Positions 18,925 to 43,197 of a stretch of 64,000 bases of DNA are shown here, piece by piece. The position numbers and the translations under genes were made by a program. The notes beneath the pieces are model-generated. The model had not been told where the DNA came from. It was given only the letters and a program-made list of their open reading frames with translations, and did not search any database. The stretch is taken from positions 138,840 to 202,839 of the forward strand of contig MHLM01000001.1 of the NCBI GenBank assembly GCA_001821395.1, in the 5' to 3' direction. This stretch comes from Candidatus Lloydbacteria bacterium RIFCSPHIGHO2_02_FULL_50_18 (lineage in GTDB: Bacteria; Patescibacteriota; Minisyncoccia; Phycocordibacterales; UBA6899). How positions within the stretch are numbered: the stretch's first letter is position 1; every line of letters starts with the position of its first letter.

Positions 18925-18943
18925 GTGAAAATTTTTCATATCG

Positions 18944-19231
18944 CTAGAAAGGATTCTGATAAGTGTCGGTATACGGATTGACCGTTTTTTCGAACGGATT
19001 CGTATCAGGCATCTTTTCGACTGGATTGGATGCACCAGTTTTTTGATAAATATCTCCACCAAAAGATTCGGCGGGTACCGCCTCTGCCGGTGTGGCATTT
19101 GTATCACTTCCTGATAATGTGTTGTCGGTCCCCTTTTGAGAAGTACCGAAATAAAACCAAAACATAAACCCTAAAATGACGGCGAACACGAGCGCGGCAA
19201 GCGCAAGTAGTACATTTTTTTTCATGATCAA
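18944..19231 (-). CDS. small secreted or membrane-anchored hypothetical protein
   Basis: MIMKKNVLLALAALVFAVILGF signal anchor. A8 tract within codons 4-6. Confidence 0.4.
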   Translation of the reverse strand: MIMKKNVLLALAALVFAVILGFMFWFYFGTSQKGTDNTLSGSDTNATPAEAVPAESFGGDIYQKTGASNPVEKMPDTNPFEKTVNPYTDTYQNPF

Positions 19232-23090: not shown

Positions 23091-23174
23091 GAGAACAGTA
23101 TATCGTATTATAAATAAAGTATCGAGTACAAAAATCCGCCCCCATGGTGGGACGGCTTATGCTAAAAAGACAGC

Positions 23175-28991: not shown

Positions 28992-29063
28992 GGCGTAGTG
29001 GCGAAGTGGTAACGCATAGATCTGCAAAATCTACATGCACCGGTCCGATTCCGGTCTACGCCT
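28992..29063 (+). tRNA. tRNA-Cys (anticodon GCA)
   Basis: Acceptor GGCGTAG/CTACGCC, anticodon loop CTGCAAA, discriminator U. Confidence 0.78.
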
Positions 29064-29064
29064 C

Positions 29065-29130
29065 CCTAAAACATTTTGTTGCAAAATGTTCGGGCGATCA
29101 TTTTGCAACAAAATGATTTAGCCATGAACA
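29065..29130. repeat. pair of mutually complementary palindromes between tRNA-Cys and tRNA-Leu
   Basis: AACATTTTGTTGCAAAATGTT and ATCATTTTGCAACAAAATGAT. Confidence 0.5.
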
Positions 29131-29136
29131 AATGCT

Positions 29137-29217
29137 GCCCGGGTGGTGAAATGGTATACACAGGAGACTTAAAATCTCCCGTCGCAAGGCATGTGGGTTC
29201 GACTCCCACCCCGGGCA
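29137..29217 (+). tRNA. tRNA-Leu (anticodon TAA)
   Basis: Acceptor GCCCGGG/CCCGGGC, anticodon loop CTTAAAA, long variable arm, T arm TGGGTTCGACTCCCA. Confidence 0.85.
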
Positions 29218-29218
29218 C

Positions 29219-29254
29219 AAAGTAAATAAATCCCTGATGGGATTTATTTACTTT
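29219..29254 (+). terminator. intrinsic terminator after tRNA-Leu(TAA)
   Basis: AAAGTAAATAAATCCCTGATGGGATTTATTTACTTT. Confidence 0.65.
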
Positions 29255-29400
29255 GTGCCCGGGAGAAAGCAAGCTGCCTTGCTTTCGCGTGGGAGTCGAA
29301 GCCCGTTTCGTTATTTGCGAAGAATTCCTATTCTGAGAAAATCGAAATGGGGTGCTGACCCAGCAAAGATCGAACCTCCCACGTTAATAGTGTAAAATGA
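29255..29400. repeat. tRNA-Leu(TAA)-flanking miniature element
   Basis: GTGCCCGGG (antisense acceptor), CTGC-loop hairpin 29264..29285, TGGGAGTCGAA (antisense T arm), conserved GAATTCCTATTCTGA...GGGGTGCTGAC module, terminal sense T-arm-like TCGAACCTCCCAC. Confidence 0.6.
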
Positions 29401-29405
29401 GTCAA

Positions 29406-29567
29406 TGAATAAAAAGATCGTCGCATCACTGACTCTCTCAATCGTTGTTTCATTTCTGATAATAGTTACTGTTTCGAATTATTTTGCTGAGAAAGAAATA
29501 GCGAACCAGCGCTCTGAATACACAACTCGAGGAATAGCCTTTGGCGAAACTCTTGCCCCGTAGGCAT
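29406..29567 (+). CDS. possible 53-aa membrane peptide
   Basis: MNKKIVASLTLSIVVSFLIIVTVSNYF... Short ORF below tracker threshold with no other support. Confidence 0.2.
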
Positions 29568-29804
29568 ACCTTTTCCATATGCATGCATGGGGCTTTGTGT
29601 TCGTGAAACCAATATAAAAAATTTGCTTGTAGATGTGGTGATCTTTTGCATTCCCACATACATTCTTGTCTATGCTTTACTTGTTTTGATAGCCAAAAGA
29701 AGATCTCGAATAGGTGACGTTTCATCAAACGTAAATTAGCCCCAGTGTTCGAATCTATTGCGAATCTTCCTTGATTTGCTATGATAGCGAAGTTAGGGAA
29801 AATT

Positions 29805-29880
29805 GCCTTCGTAGCTCAGTTGGTAGAGCAGCTCGCTCTTAACGAGACGGTCGCAGGTTCGAATCCTGCCGGGGGCACCA
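29805..29880 (+). tRNA. tRNA-Lys (anticodon CTT), CCA encoded
   Basis: Acceptor GCCTTCG/CGGGGGC, anticodon loop CTCTTAA, T arm GCAGGTTCGAATCCTGC. Confidence 0.85.
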
Positions 29881-29912
29881 TAAAAAAATCCGCGACAAGC
29901 GGATTTTTTTAT
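29881..29912 (+). terminator. intrinsic terminator after tRNA-Lys
   Basis: AAAAAAATCCGCGACAAGCGGATTTTTTT. Confidence 0.7.
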
Positions 29913-30050
29913 GGTGCCCCCGAAGAAGTGCCCTGCGGCACTTCTGGCAGGATTCGAAGCCGTTCTCCCATATTTCTGAATGATTCATATCATGAGGAAA
30001 TGGGAAACGGGTACTGACGCAGTAGGCGTCGAAACTCCTGCCGTGAGATT
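29913..30050. repeat. tRNA-Lys-flanking miniature element
   Basis: TGGTGCCCCCG (antisense 3' end including CCA), CTGC hairpin (GAAGTGCCCTGCGGCACTTC), GGCAGGATTCGAA (antisense T arm), GCCGTTCTCCCATATTTCTGA...GGTACTGACGCAGTAGGCGTCGAAACTCCTGCC. Confidence 0.6.
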
Positions 30051-30250
30051 TCAAAAGACTGAGTATATTTCGCATGCCTGCGCATGCAGGTCTTCAAAAT
30101 ACGAAACCCAACATGCAGAGCTTGTCTTCGTGTCCCCAATGGCATCGGTGTGATTTCGCACTTGCGAACAAGTCTATGAGAACCCAACTGATGTCGGTTT
30201 ATTCTTCCACTTCCCTTTTATCCAAATTCCAGTACTATAGCCCTACACCC

Positions 30251-30332
30251 TGCCCAGGTGGCGTAATTGGTAGCCGCGCCAGTCTTAGGAACTGGTCTCG
30301 CAAGAGGTGGAGGTTCAAGTCCTCTCCTGGGC
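30251..30332 (+). tRNA. tRNA-Leu (anticodon TAG)
   Basis: Acceptor GCCCAGG/CCTGGGC, anticodon loop CTTAGGA, long variable arm, T arm GAGGTTCAAGTCCTC. Confidence 0.85.
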
Positions 30333-30334
30333 AC

Positions 30335-30619: not shown

Positions 30620-32347
30620 TCATTCATTTCCCATCAATTCGTTTATTTTAGCCGAAGTGGTTTTACCAACATATCCGGTCCCCCTAACAAGACCCCAGGG
30701 CGCTAAAACATCTTCGGTATATTTTTCTTGGAATTTTATAACTGCTTTATAAGTCAAGAGGCCGAAATAATCAGTTTCCTTACCCGGAGAGCCAACACCC
30801 GAATCAGCCAATCGAGTATCGGGGTCGGAATTGAGGAAAATTTGCAAGCGTTTTATGTCTGCATTTGTTTGTCGGTATTGTCGGTATTGAGTAAATGGGT
30901 TAGTAAATGGCAAAATATTTATTCGCAAATTTTCCGTTACAGTAGTACCCGATCTTAGAACGATTATGCTTGAAGCAGTATCTGATGATCTGCCGTAGGC
31001 AGTGTAAAATTTAACATAAACGGTATATTGTCCATCCGGACAGATTAGATTTTTAAGTGTACCGCCAAATTTTGAGCATAAGTCCCATAGCTTGAAGGCG
31101 ACATAATCTTCTCGGCTGGCATCAGTGAAATCTCCAGTCATTGAAATCGCCAATTGCTTGATGTCCATTCCCGCATTAAAACCAAGTATGACATTTCTAT
31201 TTGACGTTGTGCTTGATCCGGAATTTACAAAAACCTTAAATCCACCTGTCGGCGTTATCGGCAAATTACTCCAACCTGCTGGCATACCACCTCCCCCACT
31301 TGAAGTTACAGCAGGAGTTACTAAGACGGCGTCCCAAATCAAAGTAAAATTATGAGAGTTGGAATTTCCGACGTTATCTGAGGCAGTAAAACTGATTACA
31401 TAAGTTCCGTTAGTATCGACTGAGATAGTTGTGCTCGACGCGGTACCGTCTCCAAACGTTACCGCACCAGGTCCTGAAACTTTTGCCCACTGATAAGTTG
31501 AAGCGTTCATATCGCTCCCGGAATCTGAAGCTGCAGCGACTTGAGTAAATGTAGCTCCTTTATTTTGATCATCTCCAGCACTAATGGTGGGATTTTGTTT
31601 ATCAATTTTTATGATATTTGACGATTCTGTGTTCTCAATATTCCCTAAATTATCTACTGAGTAGTACCTTATATATTGCTGACAACTAGAACCTGAGTCA
31701 CACGACAAACTAACACTTGTTCCTTCAGTGGTTGGCACGCAGCTATTATTAGTGTCAACGCAATAATATGTATGCGCTATTCCGCTTCCGCTATTATCAG
31801 ACGGGTTCAAATTAATAGTAAGATCTGAACTATGCCAATTATCATCAGCATTATCGGTTGTAGTTGGAGACGTATTTCCCACTACAATCGATTCATTAAA
31901 TGAAACGCTCCAATCGTAAAGGGGCAGTCCGGTACTGCCTGAAGATGGCGATACGCTCGTATCTGTATCTCGAATATTACCACCTACGGCAGTAGCATCG
32001 CCGGCTTGTGCGCACCAAGATGCAACAACATAGCAACTCCAGGCGTATCTCAAATGTTGATCTGTGCCAGTCGGCGTATCACTTAGAGTAATTTTTACTT
32101 GACTGTTATTATTTATAAGTTCTACTGAATCTATTGAAACACTATTGCCACCAGCCTGTGTAAATTCAAACCCATAATCAGGACGCTCCGCAACGTTGGC
32201 AGTATCAATAGCTAATGTTCCATAAGGGATATTATAATTGGCGATTATTACGTTACTCGATCTCAAAATCGATGATGGCATGAGGGGATTCCAAGTCTGT
32301 CCCTCAAACAATACTTTATCCATAACTTTTGCAAACATCTCTCCCAT
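30620..32347 (-). CDS. C-terminal portion (575 aa) of a large surface protein: SASA/esterase-like segment, Ig-like repeats, C-terminal peptidoglycan-binding domain. Separated from its N-terminal portion by a frameshift in an A8 tract.
   Basis: PG_binding_1-like C-terminus (IKRLQIFLNSDPDTRLADSGVGSPGKETDYFGLLTYKAVIKFQEKY). ATG lies inside the homopolymer context CAAGAAAAAAAATGGGAG. Confidence 0.6.
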   Translation of the reverse strand: MGEMFAKVMDKVLFEGQTWNPLMPSSILRSSNVIIANYNIPYGTLAIDTANVAERPDYGFEFTQAGGNSVSIDSVELINNNSQVKITLSDTPTGTDQHLRYAWSCYVVASWCAQAGDATAVGGNIRDTDTSVSPSSGSTGLPLYDWSVSFNESIVVGNTSPTTTDNADDNWHSSDLTINLNPSDNSGSGIAHTYYCVDTNNSCVPTTEGTSVSLSCDSGSSCQQYIRYYSVDNLGNIENTESSNIIKIDKQNPTISAGDDQNKGATFTQVAAASDSGSDMNASTYQWAKVSGPGAVTFGDGTASSTTISVDTNGTYVISFTASDNVGNSNSHNFTLIWDAVLVTPAVTSSGGGGMPAGWSNLPITPTGGFKVFVNSGSSTTSNRNVILGFNAGMDIKQLAISMTGDFTDASREDYVAFKLWDLCSKFGGTLKNLICPDGQYTVYVKFYTAYGRSSDTASSIIVLRSGTTVTENLRINILPFTNPFTQYRQYRQTNADIKRLQIFLNSDPDTRLADSGVGSPGKETDYFGLLTYKAVIKFQEKYTEDVLAPWGLVRGTGYVGKTTSAKINELMGNE

Positions 32348-34350
32348 TTTTTTTCTTGGGTATTCACGTCCATATGGAGCTTGTCCGACCGATAATGATA
32401 TTGATACTTTGGCTGGACCAAAATAATTTTTCCGGGATTATCTATATGCGCGTTTAATTGTGCTTCAGCTATTTCCCCCGTTGGCGCGGAATTCATTTGA
32501 TTTATAAATAATGGGATAGTGTCGTTACGGCTAGTCAGAGTATTAAGATCGGTTTCATAATCCAACTGCCATTCTTCAAGATAACTTTTATAATTTGCTC
32601 CGGCACCACCCACATAATCACTTTCTCCGTGAATTGAAGTAACTGCGATGGGTCGATACAGCTCGCCTAGCGTACTCTCAACGTAAGTTTTAGTTACACT
32701 TGCCTGTGTCATACCCTTGTTATACCAAGATGTCCCCTTTTTTAAACCACTGTAGTTAGTTCCACCATGTGCATGGAGGCCAACGACAATTGGACTGAGA
32801 AGATCTTCATACGCATGAAGGCTATTGGCCATTCCTGATGAGATTGTTTCCACATTACCGCCCTCTCCTTGCCCAGACTCAATTAATGGTATGAGCGGAG
32901 CAGCTGTTCCTTCAACTCCGGGGGTAAGCATAAGATTATTATAAGGCTGCGTAACGCTTATAGGCGGTGAAGCATAATAAACTACGGCCAGACTTTGCCC
33001 CGTTGACAATATCTGATAGTAGGTTGTTTGCTCATTTACCGCGAAGGAAACAGTCCCGGAATTATTTGTAAGAGCAGGAGTTGCTGACACGCTTATTATA
33101 TGAGGAGACCCACTCGTACTTGTAGGTGTATAGGTGAATGTTTTTGCATCTGACGAACCGGACCACGACAACGAAGTTGGCGCAAACGTTCCGGCACCAG
33201 TTGATGACGATGTAATCGTGCCGGTATATTCGCCATCAGGCGTCACAATAAAATTACCGGATGCTGTAGCCATCGTGCCAGACGACGGGCCGGCAAAAGT
33301 AAATGATGTAGCGGGTGGCGCAAGGGTGACGACTGAAAATTCAGAACTGTCTGCGGTTGCAGGGACGCCATCGGTAACCCTGAGCTTGTAATAATAAATC
33401 GTAGCGGGAGATAGTCCGGTATCTGATAATGTGAGCGATGTTTGTCCGCTTAAAATATTCCCAACACCCGGCGTAAAACCGCTGCTTATGCTACGGTACC
33501 ACTGATAAATATAGGGTGCTATTCCTCCTGTTGCTTCCGAAGATGAAAGATCGATACTTGAATCTGTTTTCTCCATTAAACTAATTGAGCCGGCGCTAAA
33601 AGTAGAAAACGGATATTCAAGCCCTGTGCCCGAATTGTATAAACTCGTGATCTCATCTGGAGTTAGTATTTTTTTCCAAAAACCAACAGAATCAATGCGC
33701 CCGTCCAAATACATTGTAGCACCAGAAGCCTGAAATCTCCCGATTGTAAATGCTGCGCTAGTATTTGCCGGCTCGGAACCGGCGACGCTTGTATTGGTAT
33801 ACGTATTATTAACAGTTATGGTATTAGTATGAGTGGTAGCATTGTGGCTACATGTGAGAAAATACCATTGGCCAATCTGGACTCCCCCCGTTGGAGTCAC
33901 ATATGCATCTACCGATGGAAAAGTAGAACAGCGAAACGTGTCGGAACTAACACCGTAATACAAAGCATATTCTCCGGTGCTGCCATATTTTCCAACAAAC
34001 GTCATATTTGTTGATTTGGTATCAAGATAGACCCATGCAGAAATAGTAAAATCTATACCGCCTATACTCAAACTGGGATTATCAACGATGCTTAAATATT
34101 CTGAGTTAGCCATAGTTAACTGCGCAGAATTTCCAAGTTTGCCAACTCCTTGAGTCACCGTATTGTTGTCGGTCAGATTATTTGAACTAACACTATCTGC
34201 TCGCGTACCACTTACCTCATCTAATTTCCAATAAGAAATAAGTGATGTGGATAAATCCGTTGCAAAAACATGAGAGAAAAATTGTGTGTACAACGACACC
34301 GAAATTAAAAGCAGGGCAAATATTTTAAAATTTTTTCGAAAGGTTTTCAT
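32263..34350 (-). CDS. N-terminal portion (695 aa) of the same surface protein: signal peptide, LamG/ConA-like lectin domain, Ser/Thr-rich Ig/FN3-like repeats, start of an esterase-like domain
   Basis: Signal peptide MKTFRKNFKIFALLLISVSLYTQFFSHVFA. LamG-like block (LISYWKLDEVSGTRADSVS...TISAWVYLD...MYLDGRIDSVGFW). Last about 28 codons are out-of-frame read-through after the A8 tract. Confidence 0.6.
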   Translation of the reverse strand: MKTFRKNFKIFALLLISVSLYTQFFSHVFATDLSTSLISYWKLDEVSGTRADSVSSNNLTDNNTVTQGVGKLGNSAQLTMANSEYLSIVDNPSLSIGGIDFTISAWVYLDTKSTNMTFVGKYGSTGEYALYYGVSSDTFRCSTFPSVDAYVTPTGGVQIGQWYFLTCSHNATTHTNTITVNNTYTNTSVAGSEPANTSAAFTIGRFQASGATMYLDGRIDSVGFWKKILTPDEITSLYNSGTGLEYPFSTFSAGSISLMEKTDSSIDLSSSEATGGIAPYIYQWYRSISSGFTPGVGNILSGQTSLTLSDTGLSPATIYYYKLRVTDGVPATADSSEFSVVTLAPPATSFTFAGPSSGTMATASGNFIVTPDGEYTGTITSSSTGAGTFAPTSLSWSGSSDAKTFTYTPTSTSGSPHIISVSATPALTNNSGTVSFAVNEQTTYYQILSTGQSLAVVYYASPPISVTQPYNNLMLTPGVEGTAAPLIPLIESGQGEGGNVETISSGMANSLHAYEDLLSPIVVGLHAHGGTNYSGLKKGTSWYNKGMTQASVTKTYVESTLGELYRPIAVTSIHGESDYVGGAGANYKSYLEEWQLDYETDLNTLTSRNDTIPLFINQMNSAPTGEIAEAQLNAHIDNPGKIILVQPKYQYHYRSDKLHMDVNTQEKKWERCLQKLWIKYCLRDRLGIPSCHHRF

Positions 34351-34780: not shown

Positions 34781-35767
34781 ATGACTATTTCTGAAAGCAC
34801 CTTAGACAAGGTCGGCGCAATGGGCGCTGCATTCTCTCTCATTGACCTCATTCGCGGGTTCAGCCATGGAGGCGTTCACGTCGGCGGAGGCACGGGCGGA
34901 GTAGGTTTTCTTACTTCTCTTCTCACTGTGCTCGTCAGAGTATGGGAAGAAAAAGGCGGGAGCATGAAAGACGAAAGCGAAATGCTCGAGTCAATGTTTG
35001 CAAACCCGCAAGCAAAGAATGAAAAACTCACACCGCAGGAACGTACCAAGATCGCGGCCGTCATCAAGGCGATGACTCCGGCAGAGCAGAAAGTGTTCCG
35101 CATCGCAATTTTTGTGATGGACCCCGATGTGACGACGATCGAAGTACCGGAGAAAAAAGACAAGGACGGCAAAGTCATCGCTGTAGCCGGAAAACGAACC
35201 GAAAAAACGGGAATTGATCCTCGGGTCAATGTCCTGCACGGTATCGCCGAGCACGTCCATGACAACCTCGATAACGTCACCGAAGTGGCCGAATTACTTC
35301 GCGGTACGGGGGCGCTGGGTGGAAACAACGAGGCACTTAAGTTTCTCGTCAAGGTACAAGTAGAGCTCAAAAAGCTTCTTTGCACGTTCTTCGGGGTCGA
35401 ATCCGTCGATCTTATCACCTTCGACATGGTCAAAGAAAAGGCAACCGTGCTCATCGGAAATATCGGTGTGCCGAATGCCAATTTGCCGGGACCTCCGGTC
35501 GGTCCGCTCATGCGAGTGGGTCGCCTCATCACGCCGGGGAGTTATCGCAATGCTCCTGCATCGAAAAGCGTGAAGTCCAAGAAAGAGGTAAGGTCGACGA
35601 GCCTGCTGAAGATGTTTGCAGTGGTAGCATGTATCACCGGCATCCTCGCTTACGGCTTGTACTTCGGAGCTTCAAAGTACCGAGCGTACCAAAGAGATAC
35701 TGAGATTGACAACATCATCAACGCGTATCAACCGACCAAAACGTCGGCTGAGCAGCCGATGAAATAG
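34781..35767 (+). CDS. hypothetical protein with C-terminal membrane anchor
   Basis: 328 aa. Gly-rich N-terminus, charged central region, single C-terminal TM (LLKMFAVVACITGILAYGLYFG). Confidence 0.45.
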   Translation: MTISESTLDKVGAMGAAFSLIDLIRGFSHGGVHVGGGTGGVGFLTSLLTVLVRVWEEKGGSMKDESEMLESMFANPQAKNEKLTPQERTKIAAVIKAMTPAEQKVFRIAIFVMDPDVTTIEVPEKKDKDGKVIAVAGKRTEKTGIDPRVNVLHGIAEHVHDNLDNVTEVAELLRGTGALGGNNEALKFLVKVQVELKKLLCTFFGVESVDLITFDMVKEKATVLIGNIGVPNANLPGPPVGPLMRVGRLITPGSYRNAPASKSVKSKKEVRSTSLLKMFAVVACITGILAYGLYFGASKYRAYQRDTEIDNIINAYQPTKTSAEQPMK

Positions 35768-35785: not shown

Positions 35786-37408
35786 ATGAGTTTATGGAAA
35801 AAAGCAGGCTACGGCCTTTTGGGAATTTCGGCCATTCTCGGTCGAAGGACCCTCTCGTCCGCATACGACCGCCAGATCGAGGGCATTACCGACGCGCATA
35901 TCAAATATGTCGGCGGCGCAATGCTCTTCGGAGTTTGCGGTCTCGTGCTTAACTTCATCTTTTTGATGAATGGGATGCACGGCATGCAAACAGCGCTCTT
36001 CGGAGTTATCTGTCTTGCGTCACTGTATTACATGATCGCGCCAAAAATGAGCATTCCGCTCATCATCGCGGCCGCAGCGGTTCATGCCGGAGAGGCGAAA
36101 GATCAAGCGAAGCTCAAACTGCTCGGCGACGGAGTGAAAGACATTGTCAATCTGGCAAGTCTGGCACTCTTTTGGATCGGTGTGTACATCGTCGGAACGA
36201 TCATTGCCCCATGGGACTTGAGTTGGGAATTCTTTCTTTTCCTTCACATGTTCATCATCATGGCACTACTGCTCTTTGTGAGCGGCAAGGCATCGGTCAG
36301 CACGAAAGTGTACGATAATTGCTTCAAGTTCACCATTGCTGTGATCGTTGTCAGCGTACTCACGATCGCAATCGGACGTGAGCACGTAGGACCATTATGG
36401 GCGCAATTCTCCGCAAGCAAAACTTCTCGTATCGAGGCCAAGTTGAACGCAAGTTCGATTAAGACCGCAGACGAAGCGTCAGCCGAGTGGATTGAGAAGA
36501 ATGTTCACATCGATAAGCGGACCGGTGAGCAATTCGTCATCGTTACCGACAAGGTCACCGGCAAACAAAAACCGGTCGCCGCACAGCCCTACATTGAGAG
36601 GGAGAAGCAACGCAGGAACGAAACCATCCGCTCGGTCACGGAAAAAGGCGGAAAGACCAATGCGACAAACACGAGACAGGATAATAAGGGAGGTTACTTC
36701 TCTTATGAATACTGGAACGCAAAAGCGCATGAATGGTCGGAATCCTGGGGGGTACCACTCTTCGTCGGCATCATTGCAGTATTGGCAATGGTCGTGGCAC
36801 ACTTCATTCCCGTCATCTGGGGAGGAAAGAAACTCTTTGGAAAGTCAGGTACTGAAACGGCAAAGGTTGTTAGTACGCCGAAGGAGTCCGGAAACGGACT
36901 TGTTGCCACATTACTCGTTGCGGGTGCTCTCGTGTATATTGGCTTTCAGTATACGCAAGGTGAACGAGGAGCAAAAGCCAATATGGCACCGCAAACAAGC
37001 GTTGCGACATATGCCACACTAAAGAAAGGAGATGCCGGTCTGTGGATGGCCTACTGGAGTGACATGAACGGGCACTCCATTTACAGACTTCCTCAAGATA
37101 GATGGCATGGGCGAACTGTTTCGCTTTTGCCAGGCAGCTCTGTTTCGAATGTGTCCGACATCACGCTTGTTTTTGATCCTAATGATCCAAGTACCAATAT
37201 CTCATTTAACGGAGATTGCGTTGCCGGTAGCTACGATATTCAAAAAGAGTGCGTCGGATACTGGAGAACAGAAGTGGGGTCCGGTACTTTCAGGCTTGAA
37301 TGGTGGGGAAGCCAGGAAACATTCCACATTGCACTGTTTCCGGGACAACTGCCGGCAAAAGGACAGGCACAAGCCATCAAGGAGATACGCTTCGTAAAAA
37401 AACAATGA
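35786..37408 (+). CDS. polytopic membrane protein (about 8 TM, charged central loop and about 150-aa C-terminal extracytoplasmic beta-rich domain). Architecture resembles Gram-positive VirB6-like (TcpH/PrgH-type) proteins.
   Basis: 540 aa. TM clusters at the N-terminus and around residues 310-380. C-terminal domain rich in W/Y/G. Similarity is architectural only. Confidence 0.4.
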   Translation: MSLWKKAGYGLLGISAILGRRTLSSAYDRQIEGITDAHIKYVGGAMLFGVCGLVLNFIFLMNGMHGMQTALFGVICLASLYYMIAPKMSIPLIIAAAAVHAGEAKDQAKLKLLGDGVKDIVNLASLALFWIGVYIVGTIIAPWDLSWEFFLFLHMFIIMALLLFVSGKASVSTKVYDNCFKFTIAVIVVSVLTIAIGREHVGPLWAQFSASKTSRIEAKLNASSIKTADEASAEWIEKNVHIDKRTGEQFVIVTDKVTGKQKPVAAQPYIEREKQRRNETIRSVTEKGGKTNATNTRQDNKGGYFSYEYWNAKAHEWSESWGVPLFVGIIAVLAMVVAHFIPVIWGGKKLFGKSGTETAKVVSTPKESGNGLVATLLVAGALVYIGFQYTQGERGAKANMAPQTSVATYATLKKGDAGLWMAYWSDMNGHSIYRLPQDRWHGRTVSLLPGSSVSNVSDITLVFDPNDPSTNISFNGDCVAGSYDIQKECVGYWRTEVGSGTFRLEWWGSQETFHIALFPGQLPAKGQAQAIKEIRFVKKQ

Positions 37409-37429
37409 ACGTTCTTTTGCTCACAAGAG

Positions 37430-37464
37430 CAAAGACCAAGGCATGATTGCCTTGGTCTTTTTTT
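37430..37464. terminator. bidirectional intrinsic terminator between convergent gene 35786..37408 and the pilin array
   Basis: AAAGACCAAGGCATGATTGCCTTGGTCTTTTTTTT. Confidence 0.65.
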
Positions 37465-37492
37465 TAAAAAACAAAGTATTCAGACCTACGCC

Positions 37493-37849
37493 CTAAATAG
37501 GAACAGTTGTTTGAATAGTAGGCGCGGTACCCAGTCCGCCGAGCGGTGCAAGTCCCAATTCTGTTTGGATGAATCCGATGATCGACCAGAGCGCTACAAT
37601 CACAAAAATACCCACCATGCCCCATACGAGAAACATCCTCCCCTCCTGCACCGCCTTCTCATCATCGGCATGCCAAATGAATTTTACGACACCCCAAAAA
37701 AATACCGCAACCGCACAACCCAACAGTACGGGCATGATGGTCTGCATGAGATTAATGAGATCATCCATGATGGTGATCACCGACGTCTGAGCAAGTGCAA
37801 ATGTTGGTAAGAAAAAAAACGTACCGAGAATAAAAGATCGTTTAGACAT
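37493..37849 (-). CDS. VirB2/TrbC-like pilin paralog 1 (subfamily B)
   Basis: Sec signal peptide (FALAQTSV). Two-helix hairpin with FFWGVVKFIWHADDEKAVQEGR loop motif. Confidence 0.6.
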   Translation of the reverse strand: MSKRSFILGTFFFLPTFALAQTSVITIMDDLINLMQTIMPVLLGCAVAVFFWGVVKFIWHADDEKAVQEGRMFLVWGMVGIFVIVALWSIIGFIQTELGLAPLGGLGTAPTIQTTVPI

Positions 37850-38162
37850 AATTCATCAGCGTCATATCGCCGCCTATTGAGCTAATAAGGAATCGCATGA
37901 TACCAAACACGGCAACCATGATGAACATGCCAATGATACCCCATATCATACCGAGACGCCCCTTATCGCGCATCTCCGCATTATCCGGATTCCAGATATA
38001 CGCGACCACTCCGTAGATAAAATAGACGGTCGCGAGTGCAAAGAGCAAAGCGATGATAGGATTCAAAATATACGTCGAGATGTTGCCGACGAAAGTGAGC
38101 ACCGATGCGGGAATCGGGGGCGCAGCTGCTTCTGCTACGCTTGGAAAAAAAATGTTTAACAT
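37842..38162 (-). CDS. VirB2/TrbC-like pilin paralog 2 (subfamily B)
   Basis: Start at MLNIFFPSVAEAAAPP (tracker ORF is extended upstream). Motif YFIYGVVAYIWNPDNAEMRDKGR. Confidence 0.55.
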   Translation of the reverse strand: MLNIFFPSVAEAAAPPIPASVLTFVGNISTYILNPIIALLFALATVYFIYGVVAYIWNPDNAEMRDKGRLGMIWGIIGMFIMVAVFGIMRFLISSIGGDMTLMNYV

Positions 38163-38211
38163 GAATAAATTATAGCATCTCAATAAAAATTGACTATCCG
38201 AATGAGCAAAC

Positions 38212-38245
38212 AAAAACCCCCGAGAACATTCTCGGGGGGTTTTTG
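38212..38245. terminator. intrinsic-terminator-like hairpin inside the pilin array (between paralogs 3 and 2)
   Basis: AAAAACCCCCGAGAACATTCTCGGGGGGTTTTTG. Confidence 0.55.
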
Positions 38246-38265
38246 TAATCCTATTTTTATCAGGA

Positions 38266-38622
38266 CTAGACTCCAGGAACAGCAAATGCTGGTGGTGTTG
38301 ACGTGGTTATTGTCCCAGTCAATCCAAGCTGAGTCTGAGCCCAACCAAGAATACCCCAGAGAGCGACCATGACAAAGATCGCAACCATACCCCAGATCAT
38401 AAGCGTCTTACCCTGCTCCTTTGCGGCTTCATCGCTTGCATTAGCGATATATTTGACCAAGCCCCAAAAGAACGCAACGACCGCAAGACCCATGAGTAAT
38501 GGGATCAAAAGCGAGATAATACCCTGAACGCTGTTTACGAGATCGGCGATACCGGTGAGCACGGTTGCTGCAGAAGCAACTGCGGGACCCACAAGCATCA
38601 TTCCGATGATAAATTTCTTCAT
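38266..38622 (-). CDS. VirB2/TrbC-like pilin paralog 3 (subfamily B)
   Basis: Start at MKKFIIGMMLVGPAVASAATV. Motif FFWGLVKYIANASDEAAKEQGK. Confidence 0.6.
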   Translation of the reverse strand: MKKFIIGMMLVGPAVASAATVLTGIADLVNSVQGIISLLIPLLMGLAVVAFFWGLVKYIANASDEAAKEQGKTLMIWGMVAIFVMVALWGILGWAQTQLGLTGTITTSTPPAFAVPGV

Positions 38623-38796
38623 AGATTTGATAATAATTAATAAATACACCGCCAAAACTATAACTTAATGCTATCGCACAAACCGATGTCAAGCAATAGA
38701 AAAAAAAGATACCTGTGGATTACTGTTTCCGTTACCCGGAATCACAAAAATCGACCTCTTCACATGCCTGATGATCATATTTTTGTACGATAAGAG

Positions 38797-39159
38797 CTAA
38801 TGGATGCCGCCAGTCGAATCCACATAATCCGGTGCGCCTCCCGGCATAATCCCAAATGTATCAACAAGAAGAATTCGCACTATTCCCCATACGGAGAAGA
38901 GCACGACGAACGCGATAATCCCCCAAATGATGAATTGCTTTCCTTTTTCACGTTCAACGGGATCGTTCGCATTACCGATAAATTTTACGACGCCCCAGAA
39001 AAAGAACATGATGGCAGCGATCCAGAAAAATTGTCCGGCCTTCACCAAAATATTGTAGACAAGCACCTCGAGGTCAAAGACGTCCGTGACTTGCGCGAAA
39101 ACAAGGGATGGAGTGCCAAGAAGCGTCGCAATACCGAACTGTTTGTTTATTGTTCTCAT
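38797..39159 (-). CDS. VirB2/TrbC-like pilin paralog 4 (subfamily B)
   Basis: Signal peptide (SLVFAQVTD). Motif FFWGVVKFIGNANDPVEREKGK. Confidence 0.6.
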   Translation of the reverse strand: MRTINKQFGIATLLGTPSLVFAQVTDVFDLEVLVYNILVKAGQFFWIAAIMFFFWGVVKFIGNANDPVEREKGKQFIIWGIIAFVVLFSVWGIVRILLVDTFGIMPGGAPDYVDSTGGIH

Positions 39160-39174
39160 GAAAATAAAAAATAA

Positions 39175-39519
39175 TTATGAGGGCGTACTCAAAAAAGGAA
39201 TACCGAACGAACCTCCAAAGAGTGTTGAATTCAAGATACCGATGAGTCCCCACATCCCAAGCACAACCGCGATACCGATGATGGCCCACAGCAGATAGGG
39301 CTTGATCTCTTCGCGCCTTTTCTCATTATCTGAATTCATCATATAGAGCGCGATACCATATACGAGTCCGGCGATAAGCGCGGCAAAGAAAATGGAGATA
39401 ATGTTCTTTAAGACTCCCAAGAGCAACTCGACGAAACTCTTGAAGTCCGTCGGCGTAGTAGCGGCAAAAGTAATAAGGGGGGAACAGAAGACTAGCGTCG
39501 CAAAGATGAATTTTTTCAT
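39175..39519 (-). CDS. VirB2/TrbC-like pilin paralog 5 (subfamily B, divergent)
   Basis: Start at MKKFIFATLVFCSPLITFAATTP. Motif LVYGIALYMMNSDNEKRREEIKP. Confidence 0.55.
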   Translation of the reverse strand: MKKFIFATLVFCSPLITFAATTPTDFKSFVELLLGVLKNIISIFFAALIAGLVYGIALYMMNSDNEKRREEIKPYLLWAIIGIAVVLGMWGLIGILNSTLFGGSFGIPFLSTPS

Positions 39520-39526
39520 ATACATA

Positions 39527-39865
39527 TTAAAATAATATCGCCGTACCATATACCATGTCTGCGATGACTTTTGCACCAAGGATAATGAGCCCGCCAACGA
39601 GTGTCCACGTGAGCCAGATCTTCGCCTTCGTCACCTGCGCTTCATCCCCCCCCGCGGTGACGAACTGAAAACCAGCATAAATAATACAGCACGCGAGCGC
39701 GGGTATGCCGACCAGCTGCATGATCTCGATCAGCCAATAGATAAAATCCTGAAGCGTAAGAATTGAGGGAGCCGGATTTGATAGCAGTGTCCATGATGCA
39801 GCAAGTGAAATTCTTGGTTGCGAGAGGGTGAGTGTGGCGAAAGATACTAAGGCTGTTTTTTTCAT
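39527..39865 (-). CDS. VirB2/TrbC-like pilin paralog 6 (subfamily A; closest to the canonical Gram-positive T4SS pilin motif)
   Basis: IYAGFQFVTAGGDEAQVTKAKIWLTWTLVGGLIILGAKVIA. Confidence 0.6.
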   Translation of the reverse strand: MKKTALVSFATLTLSQPRISLAASWTLLSNPAPSILTLQDFIYWLIEIMQLVGIPALACCIIYAGFQFVTAGGDEAQVTKAKIWLTWTLVGGLIILGAKVIADMVYGTAILF

Positions 39866-39884
39866 AAAGGTATTGGGATTCAGA

Positions 39885-40244
39885 TCACAATGAGCTAATA
39901 GTCGCCTGTATCGCTGCGGCGATCACTTTCGCACCGAGCAGCACGAGTGCCCCCAACAGTGTCCACTTGAAGGTGGTACGAGCCTTCGCAATCTGCGCCT
40001 CATTGTCCCCCGCGGTCACAAAGAGAAATCCGCCATAAATGATGAACATCACAATAATGGGCACTCCGATAAGAAAAACGAGGTCGACGATAGCGAGCAG
40101 GAGATCGGGAATAGAGGTAATCCCACCGTAAGTGATCGGGTTTACATAGCTTGACGAAGCAGCAGACGCCGTATGCGTACCCATTAAAAGTCCGAGCGTT
40201 GTCAGGTTTAATGGTTTTGTTATGTAGTGTTGCATAAGTATCAT
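39885..40244 (-). CDS. VirB2/TrbC-like pilin paralog 7 (subfamily A)
   Basis: IYGGFLFVTAGDNEAQIAKARTTFKWTLLGALVLLGAKVIAAAIQ. Start at MILMQHYITKPLNL chosen. Confidence 0.55.
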   Translation of the reverse strand: MILMQHYITKPLNLTTLGLLMGTHTASAASSSYVNPITYGGITSIPDLLLAIVDLVFLIGVPIIVMFIIYGGFLFVTAGDNEAQIAKARTTFKWTLLGALVLLGAKVIAAAIQATISSL

Positions 40245-40248
40245 GAAT

Positions 40249-40722
40249 TTATGGCCCCAAGAAATTAAATGACGATCCGGTACCAAGGAAGAATTCGAGG
40301 ATGAAATTAACAGTCACCCACGCCGCAAGTGCGATAATGAGTCCCCAGAACACATTCAAGAAAACGTCGTGCGCCTGTTTGACTTGGCCTTCATTGCCAC
40401 GATTGGTCACGTAGAGAAAACCGGCATAGGCGAACATGACCGCACCCAATGGTGCTGCGATCTTGAAAATGAGGAAATTGATCACATTCTGCGCAGTCTC
40501 GATCACGTCGTTAAAATAACATTCCTCATGATTACCCGGGGTGGTAGCATTTGATGCCCAGACCAAGGGGCTCGGATCTTTGACCGCACCGTCTCCATTA
40601 ATGTCAAATCCGCAAGGAATGATCGTTGACGGTGAAGCTGCGAATACAGAGAATGGGGTCACGAGTATCAAAACACCGAGGAATATCGCAGAAACAAATC
40701 GATGAGTGACACTGTTGTGCAT
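40249..40722 (-). CDS. VirB2/TrbC-like pilin paralog 8 (subfamily A, with an extra Cys-containing N-terminal extracellular segment)
   Basis: FAYAGFLYVTNRGNEGQVKQAHDVFLNVFWGLIIALAAWV. Signal peptide VFAASPS. Confidence 0.6.
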   Translation of the reverse strand: MHNSVTHRFVSAIFLGVLILVTPFSVFAASPSTIIPCGFDINGDGAVKDPSPLVWASNATTPGNHEECYFNDVIETAQNVINFLIFKIAAPLGAVMFAYAGFLYVTNRGNEGQVKQAHDVFLNVFWGLIIALAAWVTVNFILEFFLGTGSSFNFLGP

Positions 40723-40737
40723 AGCAATAAGTGAAGT

Positions 40738-42057
40738 TTAGTAGCGAGACAAAGCAACGTCAAGTTCCGTGTTCAATTTTGCAACAGCCGTAGCGGTGTC
40801 ATTCCTCCCTGACGAGACTGATTCGACCATCGCTTGGAATGCTTTGTCGGAAATTTCCGGCTTTGGATCAAGCCAGGTACGTGCACGAATGGCCGCTTCG
40901 AAAAATACCGCCATCGCCGCATCGGTCGGAGGAACCGCGAGCAGGTCTCTTCGAACGGGGGGCAGATTGTACGCCGCAGCAAAGTCTTTTGCGGGATTCG
41001 CATCAAAGAGCAGTTTCTGCATAGCAACAAAGGCGGTGCTTTTATTTTTGGAGGTCTTCAGCACAGCGAGACCATGCACCTTTGCAAATGTTACCTCAGC
41101 CGTCGTTCCTCGCGGTTCCGGAACCTGTGCGACCGCAAAATTCAGGTGTGGATTTTTTGCCTTGATCTCGCTATATGCACTCGCGTAATCGAAATATACC
41201 GCGAGATTTCCGTTGATGAATTCATTGCGCGAATCACTGCGCGCACGACTCCATGTAAAAATATTTTTGAGCGGATTCGAAAAATCCATAAAGAAACGGA
41301 GGGCAGAAACAACATCCTGATCGGCAACAAATTGACCGGCATCGGATTTTGCAACCATGCTCTTGGGTGTTTTCCCATTCATCTTGACGATAGGGTTACC
41401 CACCTGAAGAAAGAGCATCGCAAGAATGTCTTTCGCATGGGTCACATTGACATACTCCCCAAATGAAATTGCGCTCTGAACAAGTTCGGAGGTACGTACG
41501 TCGCGTTTTGTGAATTTGGGGGTAAGCGTCAAGAACTCATCCCAGAACTTGGGCACTTCGGTAACCGATGCATTGGTAAAAATATCTCTGTTCCAATACA
41601 TGACCATCGGGTCGATCGCAAACGGGAGCGCGACCAGCCCCTCATCGCGCATATATATCTCCGATGCCTGAATGAAGCTCGATGAAAAAAGACCCGGTGA
41701 AACAGCAGTGTACGGTACCAGCTCGATCTTATCGAAATGGCGCAGAATGAGATCATCGGGCAAAAGCAGAACATCGGGGCCCGTTCCGCTTGCGAGCGCC
41801 TCAACGATATCACTATCGAAATTTTTCGGATCATGAAATTGATACGAAATACTAAAATTCTTTTTATATATATCGTTAAATTTCTTGATCGTCTCCGAAA
41901 GACCCGCGGTGTCCTGAAAAGTACCCCATATGACGACGTTCCCCTGAGCCCCAGGAACGGTCGTGTCACCCTTTTTAGGATCCGACGTTGCAAACACAAG
42001 AAGACCGACAACGGCCATTATTCCAAAAAAAGTAAGAAGAATCGTCTGAAATTTCAT
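40738..42057 (-). CDS. ABC-type extracellular solute-binding protein (family 1, sugar-type), orphan: no permease or ATPase adjacent
   Basis: 439 aa. N-terminal signal anchor, periplasmic-binding-protein-like composition. Stop is 16 nt upstream of pilin paralog 8. Confidence 0.6.
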   Translation of the reverse strand: MKFQTILLTFFGIMAVVGLLVFATSDPKKGDTTVPGAQGNVVIWGTFQDTAGLSETIKKFNDIYKKNFSISYQFHDPKNFDSDIVEALASGTGPDVLLLPDDLILRHFDKIELVPYTAVSPGLFSSSFIQASEIYMRDEGLVALPFAIDPMVMYWNRDIFTNASVTEVPKFWDEFLTLTPKFTKRDVRTSELVQSAISFGEYVNVTHAKDILAMLFLQVGNPIVKMNGKTPKSMVAKSDAGQFVADQDVVSALRFFMDFSNPLKNIFTWSRARSDSRNEFINGNLAVYFDYASAYSEIKAKNPHLNFAVAQVPEPRGTTAEVTFAKVHGLAVLKTSKNKSTAFVAMQKLLFDANPAKDFAAAYNLPPVRRDLLAVPPTDAAMAVFFEAAIRARTWLDPKPEISDKAFQAMVESVSSGRNDTATAVAKLNTELDVALSRY

Positions 42058-42072
42058 AGGTACAACGTAGCG

Positions 42073-42633
42073 CTATGCCCGCATCTCCGTACTATTCACC
42101 TGATAAAGACCTTTCCGAAATATAAGACCATAATGAAAATTTCCCGCATTGACTGTTTTTTCAAAGGTGAAATTCAGCGATTCAACGAGCTTTCGCGCTT
42201 CTGTTTCAGGAAACACTTGTTCGGTCGTCGGTCCCATATTATTGAAAGACGCCGTCCAGTCGATCAGCATGAGTCTTCCACCCTGCTTGAGTACTCGGCG
42301 TGCCTCATCCAGAACGTTTTTTTTATCGGATGCCTGAAAGAGCACGTTCGAAACAACGACGACATCGCATACCCCATCGCTCAATTTCGTCCCGCCCAAA
42401 AGTTCGACATCTCCCCAGAGAAATGAAACATTGCCGATGTGCTTTTCTTTACAGGTATTTTCGAGGCGCGTAAGCAAGTCCTTTTGCACCTCGATCGCGT
42501 ACACCTTCCCTGTTCCGTGCATGGCTTCTGCCGCAGCGATTGTATATGCACCCGACCCCGCGCCAAAATCTGCAACCACCAAATTATCGGCTAACCCTAA
42601 TTGTTCGATATTCTTCTCCGGTGCTGAAAACAT
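42073..42633 (-). CDS. class I SAM-dependent methyltransferase
   Basis: Motif I VADFGAGSGAYT, motif post-I/II pattern (VVVSNVLF...LKQGGRLMLID). Confidence 0.75.
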   Translation of the reverse strand: MFSAPEKNIEQLGLADNLVVADFGAGSGAYTIAAAEAMHGTGKVYAIEVQKDLLTRLENTCKEKHIGNVSFLWGDVELLGGTKLSDGVCDVVVVSNVLFQASDKKNVLDEARRVLKQGGRLMLIDWTASFNNMGPTTEQVFPETEARKLVESLNFTFEKTVNAGNFHYGLIFRKGLYQVNSTEMRA

Positions 42634-42722
42634 TCGTCAATTATAGCATTTTCTGAAGATATACGGGAAGCGCACAATCCCCACCTACATTGCTCCTGCT
42701 CTTTGGGGGCGTAGAACTTACC

Positions 42723-42977
42723 CTATCGATAGATATCATGAGTACCCACATCAAGATAATAGATGGCATCCTTTTCTTTTTTAATGATCACCCGATAGGT
42801 AAAGTTTGCGGAAAAGGCATACCAAGATCTGAATTTTCCATGAAGTTTGTGAAACTTCAAAGATTCAGCGTCTTTTTCTTTCTCAAATAAAGATACCGCG
42901 CGAAAGACGTCATTTTGCACTTCCTCGTCGCATTTTTTGAGTGAGCGAAGGAAGCGTGCCGTATAGAGATACAGCAT
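42723..42977 (-). CDS. type II toxin, RelE/ParE family
   Basis: 84 aa. Conserved R/K pattern and YRVIIKKEKDAIYYLDVGTHDIYR C-terminus typical of RelE/ParE. Preceded by antitoxin with a 1-nt gap. Confidence 0.7.
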   Translation of the reverse strand: MLYLYTARFLRSLKKCDEEVQNDVFRAVSLFEKEKDAESLKFHKLHGKFRSWYAFSANFTYRVIIKKEKDAIYYLDVGTHDIYR

Positions 42978-42978
42978 A

Positions 42979-43197
42979 TTAGAATTTCTTAAATAATTTC
43001 TTCAGGTCTCCTCTATACACGCGTCCGGCCTTAATGTCCGCCTCTGCTTCGTTGAGACGGCTCAGTGCGCGCTCCTCCTGCAATCGCCCAAGCGCAAAAC
43101 GCACGAGATGTGCTTTCGACTCACTCGTCCCCGCTCGTAACTCTTCTTCAATGAACGACTCCAGCTCTTTGGTGATCGGTACGGTAATTGTTGACAT
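42979..43197 (-). CDS. type II antitoxin (ParD/RelB-like ribbon-helix-helix)
   Basis: 72 aa, MSTITVPITKELESFIEEELRAG..., directly upstream of toxin. Confidence 0.65.
   Translation of the reverse strand: MSTITVPITKELESFIEEELRAGTSESKAHLVRFALGRLQEERALSRLNEAEADIKAGRVYRGDLKKLFKKF

Follow-up and report, generated by a model that had tools for sequence, protein, structure and literature searches.

Tandem arrays of small, divergent pilin-like genes pose the question of whether their members are interchangeable variants or distinct parts of a single structure. We address it here for eight such genes, P1 to P8, located on the minus strand at positions 37493–40722 of a 64 kb stretch of DNA (the window) from Candidatus Lloydbacteria bacterium RIFCSPHIGHO2_02_FULL_50_18, an ultra-small organism of the class Paceibacteria, Patescibacteria/candidate phyla radiation (CPR), from the Rifle groundwater data set. 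Arrays of VirB2-like genes are known from these bacteria: a survey recorded 441 of them, carrying 2–11 genes, in 383 Patescibacteria assemblies, with a mean identity of 25% and a maximum of 54%, and suggested a role in adapting to different hosts (PMC12102498). Within the Patescibacteria only one member is genetically tractable, and there type IV secretion pilin arrays are essential; Southlakia epibionticum needs its array in order to grow epibiotically (PMC10633639, PMC12857230).

In the survey an array was defined as at least two PF18895 or PF04956 genes, in tandem or one gene apart and of low mutual identity (PMC12102498); the Lloydbacteria locus carries eight tandem genes with 15–45% identity. 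It is of a kind already known, since VirB2-like arrays of Patescibacteria have been published; the additions are its bipartite gene order, an operon shared with genes for a methyltransferase and a solute-binding protein, and a stand-alone P3 gene. Whereas the published suggestion is one of host-range versatility, the data for this locus point elsewhere, and we consider it probable that each of the eight proteins contributes a distinct, non-redundant subunit to a single type IV secretion filament or conduit, in which P3 is the candidate for the major subunit.

Two pilin subfamilies and their orthologs

Translation of the region yields eight intact open reading frames (ORFs), none of them a pseudogene. 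They fall into two groups, B (P6–P8, 39527–40722) and A (P1–P5, 37493–39519), and are listed here together with the two genes that precede them; protein lengths are in amino acids (aa).

37493–37849, minus strand: P1, A-type pilin, 118 aa, PF18895 33.4 bits
37842–38162, minus strand: P2, A-type pilin, 106 aa, PF18895 28.6 bits
38266–38622, minus strand: P3, A-type pilin, 118 aa, PF18895 30.3 bits
38797–39159, minus strand: P4, A-type pilin, 120 aa, PF18895 39.1 bits
39175–39519, minus strand: P5, A-type pilin, 114 aa, with an alternative ATG at 39525, PF18895 30.1 bits
39527–39865, minus strand: P6, B-type pilin, 112 aa, PF18895 30.7 bits, PF04956 22.3 bits (below threshold)
39885–40244, minus strand: P7, B-type pilin, 119 aa, PF18895 37.5 bits
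40249–40722, minus strand: P8, B-type pilin, 157 aa, PF18895 32.4 bits, PF04956 21.9 bits (below threshold)
40738–42057, minus strand: orphan MalE-like solute-binding protein, 439 aa, Pfam SBP_bac_8 and SBP_bac_1
42073–42633, minus strand: S-adenosylmethionine (SAM)-dependent methyltransferase, 186 aa, Pfam Methyltransf_31/25/11

P3 and P8 are identical to the Candidatus Lloydbacteria hypothetical proteins OGZ05244.1 (A2845_02935) and OGZ05249.1 (A2845_02960), respectively. P2 has a short N-terminus lacking basic residues, and its orthologs begin at the identical methionine. Eight-T runs near the 5' ends of the P2 (38143–38150) and P1 (37810–37820) coding regions encode Phe-Phe; at the protein level they are not conserved in all orthologs, and no sign of a role as slippage switches was found.

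All eight proteins match PF18895 (T4SS_pilin, VirB2/TrbC-like) at 28.6–39.1 bits, above the curated gathering score of 26.6 bits, and the precomputed annotation of a 190-kb ENA contig that carries this locus agrees. The gathering score of PF04956 (TrbC/VirB2), 27.9 bits, is reached by none of them, the best being P6 (22.3 bits), P8 (21.9 bits) and P5 (14.8 bits); several close P8 homologs bear a precomputed PF04956 match. Hydropathy profiles reveal the same plan in all eight, with a signal-like N-terminus followed by two helices that a short charged loop connects, and hundreds of homologs of these pilins are present in databases.

A preliminary description of the array, made from the sequence, had divided it into two subfamilies, and this division stands. 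Identity is 24–45% within group A, 24–37% within group B and 15–23% between the groups, and unsupervised clustering of 429 pilins taken from related loci assigns all but one to these groups. At the DNA level, the array contains no repeats other than two short families, one corresponding to group A and the other to group B, whose copies are 61–76% identical to the reference of their family. The A and B profiles align with an hhalign probability of 95% (E 3e-8), as homologous yet distant, and by these comparisons A and B are anciently separated subfamilies.

The motifs proposed for each group had been somewhat idealised. P6–P8, for which FVT, AGG/NRG and KAK/QAH had been given, do share the pattern YAGF/YGGF-x-F/YVT-AGG/AGD/NRG...KAK/KAR/QAH, in which P8 carries YVT and P7 carries AGD and KAR. 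For P1–P5 the tryptophan- or tyrosine-rich variant and its loop take the form FFWG/FIYG/LVYG...(N/H)-(A/P/S)-(D/S/N)-(D/N), with His in P1 in place of the Asn that had been claimed throughout.

Eighty related loci were collected using the solute-binding protein as query, and their small ORFs were typed with the A and B profiles. The nearest relative in this search belongs to Candidatus Lloydbacteria (76% identity) and the others are Paceibacteria/Parcubacteria, down to 34% identity. Nearly all loci present, on one strand, gyrA, the methyltransferase gene, the solute-binding-protein gene, one to three B genes and two to six A genes, and of the 67 loci having both pilin types, 66 place every B gene before the first A gene. 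The methyltransferase gene precedes the solute-binding-protein gene in nearly all loci, at a median gap of 5 nucleotides (nt), and the first pilin gene follows the latter within 60 nt in 68 of 75. Copy-number variation between orthologous loci, which the preliminary description had proposed to look for, is found in these B and A ranges across the class and in one relative (L008) that has an extra P3-like copy.

Orthologs of all eight pilins are 1:1 and colinear across 16 Lloydbacteria-like loci, 10 of which carry the complete set of positions. P3 is the most conserved copy, with ortholog identities of 82% in the loop and 83% in the second membrane helix, and it is also the pilin type most often kept in distant loci.

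The tails that follow the second membrane helix had been described as short, rich in Gly, Thr and Pro, different in every copy and diversifying. They do differ in every paralog. The compositional description fits the A tails (13–23 aa) and not those of group B, where P6 and P7 have only seven residues after the helix. The diversifying reading is unsupported because the tail of each paralog is conserved among its orthologs, which are on average 52% identical there, against 15–23% between paralogs. Conserved tail motifs are:

P2: SSIGADxxLMNYV
P3: LGLTGTVxTxxPPxFxVPT
P4: DTLGI...YVDKNG
P5: GIPxIxPP
P8: FFLGTGSxFNFLG

Orthologs are on average identical to the protein of the window at 31% in the signal peptide and 40% in the mature N-terminus, and 67% in each of helix 1, the loop and helix 2. 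A segment-wise comparison of nonsynonymous (pN) and synonymous (pS) differences (NG86; the window against locus L003, and four other pairs) also fails to single out the tails: relative to the closest relative their pN is 0.165, near that of helix 1 (0.144) and below those of the mature N-terminus (0.252) and the signal peptide (0.323). In every segment pN lies far below pS. Since pS is saturated (about 0.7–0.8 against the closest relative and 0.5–0.98 over all pairs), only pN and pN/pS are usable, and they allow purifying selection to be stated but provide no formal test of positive selection. By these measures the eight copies are old, positionally conserved orthologs under purifying selection, tails included, throughout the Lloydbacteria clade.

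This bears directly on the alternative that the array holds a repertoire of variant pilins, any of which could serve as the filament subunit, with separate promoters that switch the cell surface to match different hosts or to evade attack. In its favour, divergence among copies is greatest in the mature N-terminus and the tail, where exposure is expected, separate promoters exist (see below), copy number varies among members of the class, including the extra P3-like copy, and the survey suggests host-range versatility (PMC12102498). It has to contend with a 1:1 colinear ortholog at every position, each with its own conserved tail, with a pN far below pS in all segments, with a B-before-A order fixed in 66 of 67 loci and with the location of five of the eight genes in one tightly packed unit. 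Moreover, identity between copies does not exceed 45%, and neither recent duplications, gene-conversion tracts and long DNA repeats nor invertible or switching elements were found in the array. Orthology and constraint, as far as sequences can tell, contradict a variant repertoire, and we consider it unlikely.

The comparison with Bartonella, where the Trw system has multiple trwL genes, and with the VirB2 paralogs of Anaplasma phagocytophilum leads in the same direction. There, too, several divergent VirB2-type genes lie in tandem in one genome, and PMC12102498 cites an interpretation of these amplifications as surface variation that serves interaction with the host. The Lloydbacteria copies differ in being ancient, 1:1 orthologous across genera, under purifying selection and divided into two fixed subfamilies; the fast or recent copies with unconserved exposed parts that characterise such variation are not seen.

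Transcription units and their signals

The preliminary description had proposed at least three transcription units on the basis of an AT-rich gap and a terminator-like hairpin, and a conserved P3 promoter, a terminator after P3 and a P2 promoter bear this out. The relevant signals, with lengths in base pairs (bp) where they concern stems, are as follows.

42640–42648, minus strand: extended -10 sequence TGcTATAAT of the methyltransferase gene, ending 6 nt before the ATG in a leaderless-type layout
38713–38722, minus strand: P3 upstream box TAATCCACAG, of invariant alignment columns, 16 nt upstream of the -35 sequence
38668–38696, minus strand: P3 promoter TTGCTT-17-TAGCAT (consensus TTGCnn-17-TATCAT), -35 at 38696–38691 and -10 at 38673–38668
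38209–38238, minus strand: P3 intrinsic terminator, 9-bp stem with seven G-C pairs (38217–38238) followed by a T run, -17.7 kcal/mol
38169–38196, minus strand: P2 promoter TAGTCA-16-TGcTATAAT, the best site of the region (10 of 12 matches plus the TG), its -10 ending 6 nt before the ATG
37431–37460, no strand assigned: 13-bp hairpin between P1 and a convergent gene for a 540-aa protein, a clear plus-strand terminator
42634–42648, 38163–38177, 3692–3705, 23091–23102 and 63334–63345: example spans of leaderless-type starts

The evidence supports a first unit comprising the methyltransferase gene, the solute-binding-protein gene and P8 to P4, read from a putative leaderless-type promoter. The stop codon of the solute-binding-protein gene lies 15 nt upstream of the P8 start, the gaps within P8-P7-P6-P5-P4 measure 4–19 nt, and in 52 of 74 related loci a -10-like hexamer ends 5–8 nt before the methyltransferase start. 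Within the 3' end of the solute-binding-protein gene, at 40735–40763 on the minus strand, lies a further promoter-like site (TTGACG, 17 nt, TAAACT; 9 of 12 matches), which could conceivably provide the pilin genes with an extra, internal start just upstream of P8.

P3 alone appears to form the second unit, which is supported by its own predicted promoter, the upstream TAATCCACAG box and its terminator. The 174-nt gap at 38623–38796 that precedes it is confirmed, its G+C content of 34% contrasting with about 47% in the surroundings, and a spacer of 132–558 nt is found before P3 in every member of the clade, with the successive blocks TAATCCACAG, 16 nt, TTGCnn, 17 nt and TATCAT. Over 13 sequences the TTG of the -35 and the TA..AT of the -10 are invariant and their spacing is fixed. 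The exact box occurs at 14 loci (two near-identical to the window's locus) on the pilin strand and nowhere on the other strand, about one occurrence being expected in 1.14 Mb. Its ATCCACA core extends to 26 of 47 distant loci, in the spacer preceding a P3-like gene; there, on direct reading of the sequences, its distance to a -35-like TTG is often about 6 nt instead of 16 nt, shorter by one turn of the helix.

RNAalifold predicted no pairs for the conserved region upstream of P3, so these blocks were taken as DNA-level signals and an RNA element was dropped from consideration. Nor can a regulon of box-controlled genes be claimed from the window, where four WWATCCACA sites against 2.35 expected in 64 kb amount to chance level.

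The hairpin that had been noticed after P3 is confirmed, with its 9-bp stem and T run. A hairpin with a T run lies in the spacer between P3 and P2 in 13 of the 14 loci that could be examined, the window included, and its sequence is different each time.

The third unit, P2-P1, is supported by a leaderless-type start and an 8-nt overlap. A -10 of the TGnTATAAT type ends 6 nt before the P2 start in eight of 14 loci (the window, L003, L007, L008, L009, L011, L014 and L017) and 7 nt before it in L010, and the overlap of the P1 start with the P2 stop is kept in 11 of 13 loci, the window included. The boundary between the second and third units is also where relatives carry insertions of 0.5–4.4 kb (L018 at 3742–8133, L009 at 13840–14917, and L013, L014 and L008); within the array they occur solely there, between the P3 terminator and the P2 promoter, as expected at a boundary between units. 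In several relatives they consist of 0.7–4.4 kb of unrelated genes for membrane enzymes; in L018 and L009 the products are multi-pass membrane proteins, among them one whose histidine-rich motif recalls fatty-acid hydroxylases, while L008 has its additional P3-like pilin copy at this place instead.

A -10 sequence ending 6 nt before an ATG places the transcription start at the ATG itself and implies a leaderless mRNA. A TATAAT-like -10 at exactly this distance precedes five genes of the window, those for the methyltransferase, P2, SerRS and a 303-aa trypsin-like protein and the ORF at 62614–63333, and a Shine-Dalgarno-like sequence precedes only four of its 50 genes. This suggests that leaderless mRNAs may be frequent in the organism.

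The hairpin at 37431–37460 is weaker when read on the minus strand, where an imperfect T run follows the stem. An Rfam scan of 37000–41000 gave only sub-threshold matches (His_leader, 36 bits against a cut-off of 49; STnc250, 30 against 42; and rimP), which are centred on this hairpin and the one after P3 and span 38208–38301 (minus strand) and 37381–37464 (plus strand); known RNA families were rejected for these sites, the matches being most likely terminator look-alikes that score below the cut-offs.

The proposed structure and the alternatives

If the eight proteins are subunits of one filament or conduit, its assembly would fall to a type IV secretion machine driven by VirB4 whose genes lie elsewhere in the genome. 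VirB4 is probably available there, judging from the entries of Table S1 of the survey, where it is given as present in at least three Lloydbacteria assemblies, one being RIFCSPHIGHO2_01_FULL_49_22 (PMC12102498). The pilins would be exported by the Sec pathway and their signal peptides cleaved; by analogy with the F and T pili both termini would then face outwards, with the loop cytoplasmic at first and luminal in the assembled structure. P3 would be abundant and the other copies would act as specialised low-copy subunits for initiation, tip or base, much as major and minor pilins do in type IV pili, and the paralog-specific tails would give each subunit an outer surface of its own. A DNA-binding factor at the ATCCACA box would control the output of P3.

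The choice of P3 follows from its monocistronic organisation with a putative promoter and terminator of its own, from its loop and second helix being the most conserved and from its retention in distant loci; taken by itself, the assignment of P3 as major subunit is tentative and open to considerable doubt. The major pilin gene of type IV pili is often transcribed alone. The parallel with type IV pili and type II pseudopili, where one abundant and several conserved, non-interchangeable low-copy subunits are encoded together, is one of analogy only, since family, fold and assembly machine are unrelated and the Lloydbacteria pilins carry no prepilin peptidase motif. P8 is distinguished by an N-terminal insert (residues 35–70; window 40512–40620) of differing length among relatives, in which C37 and C68 are invariant in 78 homologs; the invariant pair suggests a disulfide-stabilised loop in this presumably extracellular insert.

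Several results weigh against this picture. No VirB4, VirB6 or VirD4 was detected by Pfam in the scanned large ORFs of the window, and the link to a secretion machine is drawn from a literature table and from family membership, as the case for P3 is drawn from gene organisation and conservation. The window's own copy of the P3 promoter is a weak match that falls below a generic promoter scan, and no terminator was found after P4 in any locus, so that read-through into P3 is possible. The structural searches are equally non-committal. AlphaFold models P3 (70 aligned sequences, pLDDT 81) as a helical hairpin, with helices at 2–60 and 65–99 and an unstructured tail, and P8 (78 aligned sequences, pLDDT 74) as a coil at 28–69 followed by helices at 70–106 and 111–146; in Foldseek comparisons of both models with the PDB no match reached E ≤0.001 (best E 0.5–2). 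The conjugation pilus of A. pernix (8dfu) ranked 4th and 5th and the T-pilus (8exh) 9th, amid ATP-synthase c subunits and coiled coils; for these predicted models, then, conjugative pilins sit among many generic helical hairpins. In a search of PDB sequences with the A profile the top match to a solved pilin, TraM of pKM101, was weak (E 0.028). Matches of the B profile to designed 'Pizza' proteins were set aside as spurious repeat matches via a short YVTxxGN-like motif.

Such results leave some room for a pilus-free membrane complex, in which the two-helix proteins would operate with the solute-binding protein, and perhaps the methyltransferase, in uptake or sensing independent of secretion, the Pfam name being misleading. 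The genes for the methyltransferase, solute-binding protein and pilins do form a tight operon across the class, with gaps of about 5 nt, no ABC (ATP-binding cassette) permease or ATPase gene occurs within 10 kb on either side of the solute-binding-protein gene, the window lacks a secretion-machine gene among those sought, and the hairpins of ATP-synthase c subunits score as high as pilins. To our knowledge there is no precedent for a solute-binding protein partnering two-helix hairpin proteins. All eight proteins, however, pass the curated PF18895 threshold, B-type homologs match TrbC/VirB2 in PF04956, and there is a sub-threshold match to NCBIfam NF045849, a Mycoplasma pilin-like family of conjugal transfer in integrative and conjugative elements (ICEs), for P3 (26.5 bits, E 3.8e-6) and P8 (20.4 bits, E 3e-4; cut-off 40 bits), in keeping with the connection to monoderm conjugation systems drawn in the literature. 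Many other Patescibacteria have genes of this pilin family next to virB4 (PMC12102498). We therefore regard a complex of this kind as improbable.

There is also a more speculative proposal. The class-wide operon might encode a dedicated hetero-oligomeric conduit whose parts are built by the two ancient pilin types, with B subunits in a membrane-proximal base to which the anchored solute-binding protein is coupled and A subunits, P3 in bulk, in the shaft, serving nutrient uptake from the host cell rather than export of DNA or effectors, with a regulator at the ATCCACA box setting shaft output; we would give this arrangement rather little credence. That the subfamily pattern and the non-coding signals arise by chance from composition bias is scarcely credible: although the proteins are short and hydrophobic, the spacers AT-rich, and a generic scan of the region finds promoter-like and terminator-like sites little above expectation (12 against 6.6 and 7 against 5.1), all eight proteins have curated-threshold Pfam matches and belong to a family with hundreds of database homologs, their orthology is colinear, the 14 occurrences of the 10-mer box, against about one expected, all fall on a single strand, and the terminator recurs at the same place with different sequences.

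The favoured reading, that of non-redundant subunits, can be set beside the systems it most resembles. With the Patescibacteria VirB2-like arrays of Southlakia (Wang et al. 2023) and of the survey (Quinonero-Coronel et al. 2025) the locus shares tandem chromosomal PF18895/PF04956 genes of low identity that encode a signal peptide and two helices; it differs in not lying beside virB4 and in forming an operon with the methyltransferase and solute-binding-protein genes downstream of gyrA. Neither gyrA nor a solute-binding protein is mentioned in an array context in PMC12102498, PMC10633639 or PMC12857230, and the array descriptions in these papers do not include the two-subfamily make-up, the B-then-A order, the positional orthology, the three units or the ATCCACA box.

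The TrbC/VirB2 pilins of diderms (T-pilus VirB2, RP4 TrbC, pKM101 TraM and F TraA) are likewise small helix-loop-helix proteins with signal peptides, and the resemblance extends to the PF04956 scores of about 22 bits for B copies, the TraM match of the A profile and the presence of the T-pilus and the A. pernix pilus among the top folds. Unlike them, the Lloydbacteria pilins belong to a monoderm host, occur as eight divergent copies rather than one, remain below the PF04956 score, have fold matches that are not significant, and have no VirB3, VirB4, VirB5 or VirB6 genes adjacent. Mbov_0395 and MMCAP2_0565 of Mycoplasma ICEs (NF045849) are small two-helix pilin-like proteins of monoderm type IV secretion, each encoded by a single gene in a mobile element, whereas the Lloydbacteria genes form a chromosomal array of eight.

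A multi-subunit picture predicts a filament or conduit built of several distinct subunits and names candidates for them, a major subunit of P3 type and a special first subunit of P8 type with its cysteine pair. The solute-binding protein and the methyltransferase would be possible partners, and the ATCCACA box offers a handle on regulation. The succession of gyrA, methyltransferase, solute-binding protein, B genes and A genes provides a locus marker for Paceibacteria genomes.

Operon partners and wider neighbourhood

The solute-binding protein begins with a hydrophobic N-terminus, MKFQTILLTFFGIMAVVGLLVFATS, that looks like a membrane anchor. For the methyltransferase NCBIfam gave only generic methyltransferase matches, below threshold. 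Between gyrA and the methyltransferase operon lies a pair of small genes (42723–42977 and 42979–43197, both minus strand) that looks like a toxin-antitoxin insertion, the 84-aa product having a weak HigB/RelE-like toxin match (E 0.0013).

Downstream, the array faces two convergent genes for membrane proteins of 328 aa (34781–35767, plus strand) and 540 aa (35786–37408, plus strand), neither with a Pfam or NCBIfam match that would speak for or against a VirB6-like role. Most related loci likewise have, after the array, a convergent pair of comparable size, whose second gene belongs in many of them to a family with an SPFH/Band 7 domain, and a link of the pair to the pilin system is possible. 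Beyond it two minus-strand genes, at 30620–32347 and 32263–34350, encode large proteins, one with a PKD domain and the other with a Laminin_G_3 (concanavalin-like lectin) domain, that could be surface adhesins; among the related loci they were detected in the window's own contigs (L001 and L002) only.

The window as a whole is ordinary chromosome. Pfam identifies SerRS, DprA, TopA, RelA/SpoT, ParB, MiaA, alanine racemase, ClpB, a cysteine-desulfurase-like protein, IF-2, gyrA, a ribosomal protein S1-like protein, HisRS, FtsA, FtsZ and thioredoxin reductase, while neither Pfam nor NCBIfam matches a 760-aa ORF at 16825–19107 on the minus strand at E ≤0.01. Of the nine tRNA genes, four (Cys-GCA, Leu-TAA, Lys-CTT and Leu-TAG) form a loose cluster at 28992–30334 in a lower-G+C region adjoining the PKD and lectin genes.

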